Assembly: GCA_964016885.1 (NCBI GenBank)
Contig: OZ024743.1
Span: 84,754,001-84,818,000 of the forward strand
Reading direction: 5' to 3'
Length of the DNA: 64,000 nucleotides
Origin: Eledone cirrhosa
Lineage: Eukaryota
Made by a program: the position numbers and the translations under genes. The notes under the pieces were generated by a model. It saw nothing but the letters and a program-made list of their open reading frames with translations, was not told the DNA's origin and did not search any database. Shown here piece by piece: positions 1 through 52,745 of this stretch (the first letter of the stretch is position 1; each line of letters opens with the position of its first letter).

Positions 1-731
1 TATTACAGTGTATATAATACAGGGTATATAATATATATAGCAGTAAAATTGACCAACAAAGTATTACAGCTGCAATGTATAGTACAATGTATATAATATA
101 TACAATAGTAAAATCGGTGTAGAGTGTATATAACATACAACAGTAAAACAGATCAATAAAGTATTACAGTATATATTACAGATACAGCAGGTGTATATAT
201 AACATATATAGCAGTAAGACAGACCATCAAAATATTATAGTCTCCATATATTACAGCTACAACAGGTGTATATAGTAGAATGTATATAATATATATAGCA
301 GTAAAACAGACCAATAAAGTATTACAGTAATATATATACATTTATACAAGCTATAACAGAGGTATATAGCACAATCTCTATAATATATAATAGCAGTAAA
401 ACAGGTGTATAATGCAGTGTATATAATATATATATCAGTAAAACAAACCAATAAAGTATTACAGCAATATATATACTACAGCTACAACAAAAGTGTATAG
501 CACAATCCCTATAATATAGCAATAAAACAGGTGTGTATAGTAGAATGTATATAATATATATAGCAGTAAAACAAACCAATAACATATTACAATATACACT
601 ATAACAGGTGTGTATAGTACAATCATCATCATCATATACAATATATATATATATATTAATGAGTACATCAAAGAATGAGTTTTACACTAGATTGGAAGCA
701 CTCTACAGAACTATATTTTCCAGAGTTATTA

Positions 732-970
732 ATATTAATTCAAATATTAACAAAAATAGATATTCTTGTGATCAATTAAATTTTATTATACATATTTCAG
801 AGGTACTGAATTAAGTTCAACAGTACGTCCTCATCAGGGTTTGTCATGTATCATTTTATTTTATCTCATGAGGACATACTGTTGAACTTAATTCAGTACC
901 TCTGAAATATGTATAATAAAATTGAATTGATCACAAGAATATCTATTTTTGTTAATATTTGAATTAATAT
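732..970. repeat. Near-perfect inverted repeat, 103-bp arms (732-834 / 868-970), 33-bp spacer; Penelope-like pseudo-LTR remnant
   Basis: Arms are reverse complements with 2 mismatches. Confidence 0.9.
858..922 (+). ncRNA. Type-I hammerhead ribozyme-like motif (core variant CUCAUGA); mirror copy on the minus strand at about 780-837 has intact CUGAUGA
   Basis: ATTTTAT-CTCATGA-GGACATACTG...CAGTACCTCT-GAAA-TATGTA-TA-ATAAAAT: helix I 7 bp, helix II about 10 bp, self-complementary minimal helix III, AUA cleavage triplet. Confidence 0.65.
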
Positions 971-1574: not shown

Positions 1575-32395
<30,821 letters not shown>

Positions 32396-48129: not shown

Positions 48130-51100
48130 TTATCCCTAGCGCATCATATGGCGGAAGAGAGACGTGATTCATCATACGAGTGTATATGAACACATATACA
48201 ATATGATTATGCTAATTCAGAATGTGTATTTAATTAGAAGGGTCTCTACAACAACTACAACGGTACGCGATGGGGCCCACCCACAGCCCCGGCGGACAGA
48301 ATGGAGAAGGCGTTTCCCCGGAGAACGGCGAGGGAGACGCGCTGGAAGAGCCACTCCAACTCATGGGGCTCACACCTGCGACTGGCCAGCTCAGTGCCTA
48401 TGGCGGTGAGTAAGGAGGTAGCCCTGGGGCCGAGGACACCAGAAGTCTCCACTGCCAGGGGTACAACCGCAAACCTGTCGGAGAGCGACCGGCATTTGAG
48501 GAGTTTGGTCCCCCCAGCCCGACGTGCAGCAGAACCTGGGTCAGTCGCAGACTGCACCAGGTTGCAGCTGCAGAAAGTGTCGGTGCAAGTGGCATCCACA
48601 GACGAGGGGTTTGCCACCGCGGAACGGGAAGATGGTCATGCCATCTGGCCTTTTGCTGTCCCCTCGATCCAGCCCCACTGGCTCGAGCTGGGATGGGAAG
48701 CCTGCAGCGTCCAAGCCATGTTTAATGACCTCGTTGAGGGCAGCATGGCGTGGAATGCGGCCGGCACTGTGGCGACAGGAAAGCGGGTGGAGGCCGAAAG
48801 AGTCCACGGTGGAACCGCAGCGACATTGGCGTAGCTGGCAGATCCGGAGGCCGAGCCTCAGGGAAACGCTGATGCGCAGACTATGCTTGTCTAGCTGCGT
48901 GCCAGTGGAGAAGGAGGGCAGGGCATGGAGCCAGGCACCACTGTGGGGTTTGGAGGCTGCACAAAAACAAGCAAGGCAGTGCTGGTCGAGCTGGCGCGTG
49001 AGCCTGTCTAAGGCCAGGCTGCACTAGATGGCATCCCAAGTGCGTTGGGGGAACTTGACGTCAACAGGGGAAGAAGGAGGAGGGACGTCTACTGGGCTAA
49101 GTCCTAGCCGGTCCCACGTCTCACAGGCGGCCTCACGTTCTCTGAACACAGAGGGTTCTGTTGTGTTTTGAAGAACCCTGCTGACGAGGATGTGGCATGA
49201 GGTTACCGACGAAAGATATGCCGTCAAAGCTAGTGAGATCAGGGATCGGAGGCGAAGGCCGCCATACCTGACAGGTAAAGTGGCCTGTTGCCACCTTGTC
49301 GTCAAACTTGACGTTGCATATCTCCTCAGCTGCTGTTCGGATGGCAGGCGGGTGGATCGGTGATCCAAGAATGAGGACATCCTCTTTGGGGGTTACCTGA
49401 ACCTGGCGTACAAGACGGAGGCTGCAAAGCTCGCAGCATCGAGGTTGACATTCACCACCGATTGAAGGTCATGGCAGACCGTCCACACAGGCCCGCCCAA
49501 CGTAGCATCATCCAGATACGAAACATTGAGGGTGGCTGTGATACTCCGGGCGATGTGGTCAATACCAAGGGCGAACTGGATGGGTCCCAAAGAGTCGCCC
49601 TGTTGGACCCCAGTGGCCGAAGGTATGACCATATCAGCAGCAAGTAGCATGGTCGGGGCTCCATAAGACAGGTAGGCCAGCGAGTAGGCAGAGGGGACTC
49701 GGCTGAAGCAGGCCTCAAGCAGATGATCCCGGCGTAAAGAGTTAAAGGCATTCCTCATGTCAAGCTTGACAATGAGGTGCCTGGAGTCCCTGGATGCCGG
49801 TTCCAATGGGCAGCTGTTGCAGAACTGCCTGGTTGCATGAGCGGCCCCCTCACAGCCACCGGACACGCCGACACCCAGTTGCACCGGACTAAACTCCTCA
49901 CCCAGTTCGTGTTATGGACTTGCAGATCACCTTGGCAGCCAGCCTCCGGAAGACATTGCCCACAGCAATGGGGCGTATGCCACCTTCTTTCTTCTGAGAG
50001 CGGTGAGGTTGGGCGAAAAATAGAAGCCTCGGGCGTAAGGGTCCAGGGCGCCATGGATGAGCCTATTGGGGAGTGCCACAATTGCACTCAGAAGGCGGCA
50101 TCCGGCCTCAGCGGACAGGGGAGATATCAACTCCCTGAGGTGGCCTGGTCGGAGACCATCAACACCTCCGCAGCTGCTAGCTGGGAAGGACCTGATGGCG
50201 GACATGATGTCTGCATCAGAAGCCACAAGGAGCTAGTGTGGGACGGGTGGGGGTATGGGTTTGAGATCAGTAGGTGGCTCAAGGTGTTTGTGTTGCAGAG
50301 CAGCCAGGACCTCCTTGGTGGGTTGGAGGACAGTGTCCTCTGAGGCAACAACTCTGACTGCGGCCGAGACATCACCCATGATAAGCTTGGCATTTACCTG
50401 GTCACACAAACGCTTGGCACCGGAGGATAGGGGGTACTTGAGGGTGGGGTGTGTGGCGTCCTTGGGCATGCTTGGAATGGGCGCTCGCCCAAAGGACGAG
50501 ACATTGGCCCAGAAAACAGAGTTCCACGTGCTGTAATCTGGTGGGCTCTTAGAAAACTAGGAGTAGATGAATGGCTTGTGAAAGTGGTACAAGCCATGTA
50601 TAGGGGAGCAGTCAGCAAAGTTAGGGTTAGCAATGAGTATAGCGAGGAATTTAGCGTACAGGTTGGGGTCCACCAGGGCTCTGTTCTTAGCCCTCTCCTG
50701 TTCATCATAGTCCTGCAGGCAATAACGGAGGAGTTTAAGATCGGATGCCCATGGGAACTCCTAGCTGAATCTATGGTAGAACTAGAGAATAAATTCCAAA
50801 CTTGGAAGCAGGGACTAGAAAGAAAGGGTCTCAAAGTCAACATGACAAAGACTAAGGTCCTTGTAAGTAGACGAGAAAACAGAACCCAGATCCCCTCAGG
50901 GAAATGGCCTTGCTCAGTATGTAGGAAAGGTGTAGGTAGGAACTCCATTCTCTGCCCCAAATGCAAACAATGGGTACACAAGAGATGTAGCGGGATGTCA
51001 GGAAGCTTAATTAAGAATGTAGGATTCACATGCAGCAGCTGTGCTGAGACAGCAAGCAGCAAACAGCCACAGGAAACAAGTACCACCAATCTCTGGGAGG

Positions 51101-52745
51101 GCCCTGTAGAAACAGTAGACAGCTTCTGCTACCTAGGTGACCGAATTAGCAGCGGAGGTGGGTGTTCAGAAAGTACAATAACTAGGGTAAGAACGGGATG
51201 GAAGAAGTTTAGGGAACTACTACCACTGCTAGCTGCAAAAGGCATCTCCCTCAGAATGAAAGGCAGACTGTATGATGCGTGTATCCGAACAGCGATGTTG
51301 CATGGTAGTGAGACCTGCGCGCTGAAGGTGGAAGACTTACGGAGATGAGAGAGAAACGAAGCCTGCATGCTCCGATGGATGTGTAACAGTAATATACGTG
51401 AATGACAAAGCATAAATGAATTGAGAGAGAGACTGAGGATAAGAGGAATCAAATGCTGTGTGCAGGAGAGGCGGTTGCGCTGGTATGGACATGTGATACG
51501 TATGAAGGATGACAGCTGCATAAAAAAAGGTGCAGAGCACTAGAAGTTGATGGAAACCGCGGAGTGGGGAGACCCAAGATGACCTGGGATGAGGTGATAA
51601 AAGCCGACCTTACCCAATTACACCTCTCAAAGACAATGACACACGACCGTGACTTCTGGCGTCACGCAGTAATACAGAGTACCCGACCTCCCATGAGTAC
51701 AAGCTGAAGCATATAGACAATATGCCCCCCCCCCCCCCAAGGTGGTCGTGGAGGTGCCACGGCAAAAAAACACCCAGCCCACACTGTAAAGTGGACGTGT
51801 TGGCGCCACGAAAAAGCACCCAGCACTCACTGTAAATGAGGTTGGTGTTAGGAAGGGCATCCAGCTGTAGAAATCAAGCCAGATCAGTTCCTGTATGAGC
51901 AAGGCATGGTCAGCCGACCAGACACTGCCCACAACAGGACAACCCGTCTAACCCATGCTAGTGTGGAAGAACGAACGTAAAACGGTGATGATGATGATGA
52001 TGATGAAGGCTGCTGTTGACCGGTCGCCCCGGTCAACGCCAGAGCTGGGGAGGCCGAGGGCAAGTGGGGCGAAATAGAACAGCCGCTCCCAGTCACTGGC
52101 TCGATTGGAGTCCAGGGTGCTCTCAATCGAGGAAGCAAAGGCATCAGCTACCGACACCCGTGCCGCTCTCGGGATCCTGAGTGGGATCTTCCGGAGCCGC
52201 CTGAGCCGAGCGATGTTGACCAGCGAGGCTTGGGCGCCAGGCAAGCTCGCTGTCCCATCTGGTGGTGTGCCAGACGGCCGTGGCTGGGAAGACGTAGGGA
52301 AGAGGCAACTCCTGCACCTCCACGATGCGAGGGCATTGGAAGCTCGATGAGTCAAGCCAACGCAGGTGAGGTGGTGGAAGCAGCCGCACCCCAAACAGTT
52401 CTGGCCCCTCTTCCGTTTGTTAGTGGTGTTGCAGGTGTCGGATGGAAGATGGGGCATGGGGCCGGGGACTGGGGCACCGAGCGGCATCAGGGGTGGGTGG
52501 AAGGGAAAGTGCTGGTAAGAGGGCCTCATAGCTCACCTATATATATATAGAGGTGTCAGAAAACAAGAGAGAAAAGAAGGAGCTGCATGGAGGGGGACAC
52601 ACAGGAAGGTAGAATGTTAGTAAATGAATGAGTGAATAGATGAATGTACAAAAAAAGGGGTGGGGGAGAACGGGGTTGTTCCCAGCGGAAAGACCCAGAG
52701 TTCAGCACGCACGGAACATATGTAAGCAAAATGTGGTCCCCATCC
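48130..52745 (-). mobile_element. RLE-class non-LTR retrotransposon (CRE-clade-like), frameshifted, with N-terminal PHD-like finger, RT, CCHC knuckle and restriction-like endonuclease; interrupted by an RTE
   Basis: CLGCGCFHHLTC...WRCRSC; PIAVGNVFRRLAAK; QLGVGVSGGCEGAAHATR; KLDMRNAFNS; GVQQGDSLGP; YLDD; ATLPVRYGGL; [19 protein letters not shown]; KRPDG; DATC; PLAVETSG. Confidence 0.88.
50514..52006 (+). mobile_element. 5'-truncated RTE-type LINE (RT with embedded PHD finger), 3' UTR and (GAT)n tail
   Basis: RVPRAVIWWALRKLGV, GVHQGSVLSPLLF, CSVCRKGVGRNSILCPKCKQWVHKRC, FCYLG, LHGSET, LRWYGHV, GRP..TW; premature stop at 51346. Confidence 0.92.

Follow-up and report, generated by a model that had tools for sequence, protein, structure and literature searches.

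This locus raises the question of what kind of element left an inverted repeat with hammerhead-like folds on opposite strands in an intron of brm, and how such an arrangement is produced. The window analyzed is a 64,000-nt stretch of Eledone cirrhosa contig OZ024743.1, for which an earlier note had proposed a recent Penelope or retrozyme insertion at 732-970. We conclude, with a probability of about 0.9, that the element is the 5´-truncated, head-to-head 3´ end of a Hydra-clade Penelope-like element (PLE) residing in a (TA)n tract of the brm intron, likely made by TPRT from both cut ends, with two damaged hammerheads that we predict to be inactive. Taken alone, the locus is transposon debris of an ordinary kind, and its value lies in the family-wide data to which it leads.

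The insertion in the brm intron

The intronic position noted previously was borne out. A brm/SMARCA2-4-type exon (1575-1804, minus strand, 5´ edge approximate) lies upstream of the host intron, which has its donor GT at 1574, spans ~2.27 kb and ends left of the window. The next exon, bromodomain-type as read from its translation, is located ~697 bp left of the window, and Pfam identified QLQ, HSA, SNF2 and Helicase_C exons on the minus strand of the window. A degenerate AT-rich minisatellite of ~44 bp (1-640 and 987-1550) fills most of the intron around the insertion. Farther along the window, a frameshifted non-LTR retrotransposon (48258-50556, minus strand; RVT_1, E 4e-8), with a C-terminus that we take to be of the restriction-like endonuclease type, is broken up by a plus-strand RT fragment that is RTE-like. 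At 50431-51345, there is a match to a PHD finger, and a hammerhead-like string at +49181, antisense to the retrotransposon ORF, is probably a chance occurrence.

Direct comparison of the arms confirmed the reported geometry of two 103-bp arms (732-834 and 868-970) around a 33-nt spacer, with two mismatches (778/924 and 826/876). The inner pairing extends 3 bp beyond the arms (835-837/865-867), where a third mismatch corresponds to the hammerhead core G. The hairpin folds at -145.2 kcal/mol (z -26), and equally good folds were obtained for 0 of 200 shuffled sequences. The extent given in the earlier note proved too small, as the element also includes a tail to the left of the repeat; the total insertion is 313 bp (658-970), within (TA)n. 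The left part of the target microsatellite (641-657, unstranded) was assigned from the sequence and because (TA)n abuts nearly all family ends; for the right part (971-986, unstranded), a target-site duplication is unreadable within (TA)n. The tail itself, a one-sided 3´ extension of the PLE end, was delimited by family alignment (658-731, minus strand).

The long arm (732-837, minus strand) is a 5´-truncated PLE 3´ end that begins at hammerhead C3. It carries CTGATGA (837-831), helix II (830-821/808-799), GAAA (798-795) and the 3´ helix I strand (786-780), the 5´ partner of which is gone through the truncation, so a CTGATGA core lacking this strand is found on the minus arm just as described before. 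The short arm (834-970, plus strand) is likewise a 5´-truncated PLE 3´ end, running from -30 to the family end termed B below. It contains a complete minimal type-I hammerhead (858-922) with a predicted cut after 915, and every part listed earlier for this arm could be read: helix I (858-864/916-922), CTCATGA (865-871), helix II (872-881/894-903), GAAA (904-907), a palindromic helix III (ATATGTAT) and the AUA triplet. This arm has a G5C change in the core at 867 and an A.C mismatch in helix II at 876. At the head-to-head joint, 4 nt of microhomology, TCAG (834-837), are common to both arms, as read from the BLAST arm ends (locus L001, arm overlap 1608-1611), and the 33 nt of the spacer correspond to normal family sequence located upstream of the hammerhead.

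The three arm differences (~3%) suggest that the insertion is young and not brand-new. An assembly artefact was ruled out given that the arms differ at three sites and that asymmetric ends recur across contigs. DNA contigs of three runs, all from one sample that is possibly the assembly's own, cover the junction between left flank and tail; no piece spanning the element was found among them.

A family of Penelope-like elements, probably of the Hydra clade

Copies are plentiful: the search of the animal's own genome with the window repeat, a check proposed in the earlier note, gave 81 matches from 40 scored of 1,791 candidates. Across 30 fetched loci (24 places), the sequence is shared and the inversion point differs from copy to copy; the homology continues left of 732 into the tail and always stops at the same site, next to (TA)n. 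With a probe of 65 nt from farther upstream, 877 candidates were obtained, of which the 40 scored matches were 100% identical. The linked RT and GIY-YIG-type ORFs that had been suggested as something to look for were found physically joined to the family end. One such locus, L063, contains, in order, an inverted truncated copy, an end with tail, a frameshifted ORF, a ~2 kb 3´ region, a further end with tail, and (TA)n, with a full unit of 4,103 bp. At another, L084, a 750-aa open frame without the N-terminus and with a changed linker Cys adjoins ends 84-91% identical to the window element. None of the seven long stretches examined has a fully intact ORF. A search with an ORF piece gave 38,896 candidates, of which the 150 scored were 74-100% identical, and relatives at 31-40% identity, one of them named as from Argonauta, are plentiful (189 with E<=1e-20 among 8,000 scored).

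An AlphaFold model (AF2) of the ORF built from 76 sequences reached a pLDDT of 83.3, and in a Foldseek search ranks 1-7 were all telomerase RT (TERT). The single ORF thus appears to encode a telomerase-related RT, judging from the fold of the model. A PDB sequence search with the ORF gave nothing meaningful, and Pfam searches of eight ORF pieces gave no RT or GIY-YIG match. The ORF contains a YRDD motif, and three copies have VY..YIG with downstream R, E and N-type residues. Based on these motifs and the literature rather than on a fold match, the C-terminus is assigned as a putative GIY-YIG-type endonuclease. A protein-like reading of the opposite strand of the tail was dropped, given frame-breaking indels among copies.

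The Hydra clade of PLEs with a C-terminal endonuclease was defined by the motifs RWK, DKT, CxCX5C, CxxC and CxH (Craig et al., 2021, PMC8557442). We found RW[KR], DKT, YRDD, CxCX5C, VY..YIG, CxxC and CxH across four copies (L084, L086, L088 and L089), and RWK, DKT (not DKG), CxCX5C, CxxC and CxH are present in 65, 76, 69, 75 and 74 of the 76 aligned rows, respectively. No CCHH motif was seen by eye in the endonuclease in the translations, the clade comparison also being by eye only. A pseudo-LTR from a partial tandem, a 5´-truncated inverted copy and a one-sided tail are represented among L063, L087, L089 and the head-to-head pairs counted below, and the family has the (TA)n insertion preference and sense 3´ hammerhead of the Hydra clade. 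By motif and anatomy, compared by eye with published sequences, the element therefore probably belongs to this clade. The Penelope-like half of the original proposal stands, since the end is joined to an RT and GIY-YIG-type ORF, and the retrozyme half does not, given the 4.1-kb ORF-bearing unit. The family spans several young Hydra-clade subfamilies, overlooked by both Pfam and Rfam.

Like the Hydra clade as described in PMC8557442, the family combines the clade motifs with a sense hammerhead near the 3´ end and a (TA)n target. The supplement of that paper lists an octopus family, Hydra-1_Obim, with its own hammerhead, which by eye differs from the one described here; the 5´ leaders, also compared by eye, resemble each other. 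Listed there as well is Penelope-13_HM, with a 5´-truncated inverted copy and hammerheads on both strands. Compared with the published Hydra elements in this source, the unit is longer (4.1 kb with a ~2 kb 3´ region vs generally <3 kb), as is the tail (88-96 nt vs 30-40 bp). The helix III sequence also differs, being GAAAU..AUA where the published elements have GAAAC..GUH, and a constant mismatch is found at helix II pair 4. Octopus Penelope families have also been reported in PMC13282606, where ribozymes are absent from the main text.

Two other PLE loci were encountered. A second, unrelated PLE-type family in inverted arrangement (L061, G000:C3:284462500-284471500, positions 2681-5927) contains an RT piece, a GIY-YIG-like IVYIGETARS..R..H and a CxxC linker. 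L087 (G000:C3:174981500-174991400) has a 4,001-bp direct duplication with 99.2% identity over a PLE unit, reflecting a tandem of very recent origin or else a duplication introduced in the assembly.

Two ends, a one-sided tail and the origin of inverted copies

For the family, two 3´ ends were mapped, B at +105 from the core and A at +201, leaving a 96-nt tail between them. The survey covered 77 loci, after 13 of 90 were dropped for duplicating a place already included. The arms terminate at A in 56 cases, at B in 58 and elsewhere in 6, followed by TA-type repeats in nearly all. Among 37 head-to-head pairs, 32 are AB, one (L021) is BB, none is AA, and four have one off-site end. The window copy is one of these four; its tail aligns only to +180, 21 nt short of end A, which could reflect either the loss of 19 nt from an A end or a start short of that end. 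With end-blind queries, 13 of 14 pairs are AB and one is off-site (p=2e-4 for 13/13). In sister subfamilies with different tail sequences, taken in genome order, 8 of 8 pairs are long+short. Arms differ on average at 1.7 positions within a locus and at 4.3 between loci (28 of the 37 pairs being measurable). Of the 77 loci, 36 were classed as single, with one arm only within the 3-kb stretch examined; at L028, classed as single, both arms have tails and one arm is internally deleted. At the 37 junctions, judged from BLAST ends, 14 overlap by 2-13 nt, 18 have extra bases and 5 are flush or overlap by 1 nt.

Hydra PLEs and their hammerheads have been published, as have hammerheads paired on opposite strands, inverted copies, tails on one side and the targeting of (TA)n. 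The quantitative addition is that the rule of one long (tailed) and one short end, known previously just as "often at one end", is near strict in the samples examined (32/37; 8/8). In the literature searched, we did not find the family, the 90-96-nt tail, the constant helix II mismatch or the count of long+short ends. Lunse et al. (2017) may already describe such variants. With ~49,000 hammerhead motifs, 16 per Mb, the genome offers a large natural data set on the formation of PLE inverted ends and tails.

Full-length units have a TATATA tract of their own directly after end A, with the leader and ATG behind it, and end B lies in AATATTAAT. Since both ends are at TA-like tracts, both could anneal to the cut (TA)n target, and the long+short pairing is what would be expected if RT had two start sites, one used for priming on each side of the cut target. 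In the model that we favor, the PLE endonuclease would cut (TA)n on both strands, and its two 3´ OH groups would prime at different template positions, one at A (long end) and one at B (short end), where the template has TA-like tracts. The two cDNAs would end prematurely and then be joined at microhomology. In LINE-1 twin priming, both target strands also prime and a head-to-head inversion is joined by microhomology; the two LINE-1 pieces do not overlap, whereas both arms of this family copy the same ~105 nt.

A close parallel is the Poseidon element PAc of Anolis (Frangieh et al., 2024, PMC11167929), described as having two fixed RT start sites bounding a tail, an AT-rich target and an end repeat that contains a hammerhead. 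Separate priming on each target strand is the simplest reading of our end data together with the cutting and extension of both strands from two sites by PAc. The PAc starts fall within the ORF, at template positions that lack homology to the target, in contrast to the family ends, which are at target-matching TA-like tracts upstream of the ORF start. The family tail is longer than that of PAc and not significantly structured; a conserved tail structure was unsupported in five natural tails (z -0.27 to -1.81). We also noted that the divergent tails of both subfamilies (L054:1655-1772 and L135:1590-1698) share GAGTGCTT ~30 nt past end B, a candidate protein-binding or start-site signal.

The same element could have been made by another route, possible if not probable in our estimation, in which the inverted arm arises by cDNA self-priming or fold-back and endonuclease trimming during resolution of the intermediate leaves one end without its tail. 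Both steps have been proposed for PLEs, self-priming in PMC3846280 and endonuclease-mediated resolution in PMC8557442. This route also predicts arms with shared private variants and a one-sided tail, as observed, and small palindromes are present at some junctions. The genomic data alone fit dual priming and self-priming with trimming alike; what speaks for dual priming is that a PLE protein cuts and extends both strands in vitro, with RT starting at two tail-bounding sites (PMC11167929), and that both family ends coincide with TA-like template tracts. A more specific version of dual priming, which we view as unlikely, is that a dimeric PLE protein holds two RNAs paired via the palindromic hammerhead helix III, one A-primed and one B-primed from the two (TA)n strands. 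If true, the hammerhead would be an RNA dimerization signal, explaining its conservation despite weak cleavage, the two-RNA dimer would also account for the near-strict long+short rule with overlapping arms, and natural events in the tens of thousands would be on hand in the genome for testing the idea.

The other readings fare far worse. The type-I hammerhead, short length, AT-richness and high copy number would suit a non-LTR retrozyme, a small non-coding hammerhead element spreading via circular RNA as tandem monomers. A 65-bp-period triplet also exists, and among the first 100 motifs listed, 5 of the 28 adjacent pairs within 5 kb are on the same strand. However, 20 of these pairs are head-to-head (the other 3 being tail-to-tail) rather than head-to-tail monomers, and the copies are variably 5´-truncated pieces of one 4.1-kb ORF-bearing unit. 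Tandem monomers without a link to an ORF are not what is found, and the element is not a retrozyme as characterized in PMC7229834 or bioRxiv 10.64898/2026.07.22.740005; the retrozyme reading, largely refuted for the window copy, is thus very improbable. Co-option of the hairpin or the minus-strand hammerhead for brm splicing or editing seems scarcely credible: the gene that hosts it is essential, and a dsRNA stretch of ~100 bp would arise from it in the pre-mRNA, but the element is one of thousands of similar copies, has decay changes, and has its antisense arm transcribed ahead of the sense hammerhead. We give next to no credence to insertion at TA of a DNA transposon bearing terminal inverted repeats, whether a MITE or a fold-back element. 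The near-perfect inverted repeat, TA flanks and high copy number recall such elements, but no two copies have the same center, A and B make the ends asymmetric, 36 of 77 loci show a single arm within the 3-kb stretch examined, and continuity of the sequence with the RT ORF refutes this reading.

Hammerheads across the family and in the window copy

A genome pattern with helix I, core and helix III fixed and helix II free gave 49,407 matches to the minimal type-I hammerhead and none in the reversed control. Because they were fixed in the search pattern, helices I and III provide no independent test of the fold, for which the unconstrained helix II serves. Matches are not evenly spread, with 16.5 per Mb overall but 6 per Mb over the initial 16 Mb of C1, and local arrays may contribute to the count. 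The earlier note had made its ribozyme proposal depend on other copies keeping CUGAUGA/GAAA with helix pairing, and such copies were found, CTGATGA being retained at 6,436 sites; the CTCATGA of the window occurs at 17.

In 65 distinct interiors from fetched loci, helix II pairs 1-3, 5-7 and 9 form in 58-65, pair 8 forms in 45, and pair 4 is never standard (0/65; C.C in 56); off-register pairings reach 24-46%, vs 81% in register. Covariation was examined in an alignment of 50 hand-picked rows, comprising 47 of 72 distinct matches, one divergent copy and both window arms. In this alignment, 5 of 8 helix II pairs have two-sided changes. Over the whole structure, there are 72 two-sided-change cells vs 26.1 after shuffling (0/500), and slid controls are 36-55% paired vs 95.6% in register. 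Both pair-count measures robust to relatedness failed to exceed shuffles (292/500 and 345/500), such that the covariation check proposed before succeeded for the two-sided-change cells and not for these two counts. The covariation, which comes from few subfamilies, thus supports the hammerhead fold without proving activity.

As judged from sequence, family copies qualify as minimal type-I hammerheads, with a CUGANGA and GAAA core, helices, a palindromic helix III and an NUH triplet, and the family's hammerhead likely self-cleaves. Type I, a long helix II and a palindromic minimal helix III are shared with the minimal PLE hammerheads described by Cervera and De la Pena (2014, PMC4209133), who also reported dual hammerheads on opposite strands 100-700 bp apart. 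Relative to the hammerheads given in that text, the first helix II pair is more often G.U or A-U than G-C, and pair 4 is never standard. The family count is higher than the 2,000-9,000 of PMC4209133 and lower than the 120,000 for axolotl in PMC7229834. In the monomer of an intact copy, the hammerhead fold is not the MFE (-0.1 vs -9.4 kcal/mol), and cleavage in tandem transcripts that are intact would likely require a dimer formed through the palindromic helix III or the help of protein. The palindromic helix III fits the dimeric action described for minimal hammerheads of this type (PMC4209133, PMC6765202). The PLE hammerhead in PMC11167929, as reported there, cuts only with the element's protein and is dispensable for in vitro insertion. 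Intact natural copies exist, so the repaired consensus suggested in the earlier note is not needed for a cleavage test.

At the window locus, the two hammerheads are on opposite strands, which precludes a cis dimer. The suggested Infernal-type search came up empty, as the Rfam scan of the window repeat gave no hammerhead match at E<=10; the five weak matches were unrelated, and the miRNA and snoRNA matches among the Rfam results were set aside as due to the hairpin alone. Neither strand has both an intact core and helix I, and the copy is predicted to be inactive. Core G5 is essential to the hammerhead, and the plus-arm hammerhead is predicted to be dead because of G5C (17 sites vs 6,436 with G). 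The minus-arm hammerhead is predicted to be dead because its 5´ helix I strand is missing. The hairpin over both hammerheads (-145 kcal/mol) also leads us to predict no cleavage. On the pre-mRNA strand, the antisense arm is made before the sense hammerhead and the whole region folds as a hairpin; in the brm pre-mRNA, the copy would thus form a ~100-bp dsRNA hairpin instead. Many such insertions would form long dsRNA hairpins in host introns.

Several other arrangements were observed in the genome. At G000:C1:63697640-63697898, one minus and three plus hammerhead 5´ halves are spaced at 65 bp, a tiny tandem array at an inverted junction that possibly came from template slippage or a retrozyme-like seed. 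Two head-to-head hammerheads at G000:C1:4408052 and 4410652 differ solely in the orientation of loop II, inverted in one of the arms, which suggests that the template was switched locally within the hairpin. Unrelated repeats contain further CTGATGA...GAAA motifs for which a helix II is plausible (L089:1636 on the plus strand and L088:6654/7058), and the genome likely holds more hammerhead families beyond the pattern searched.
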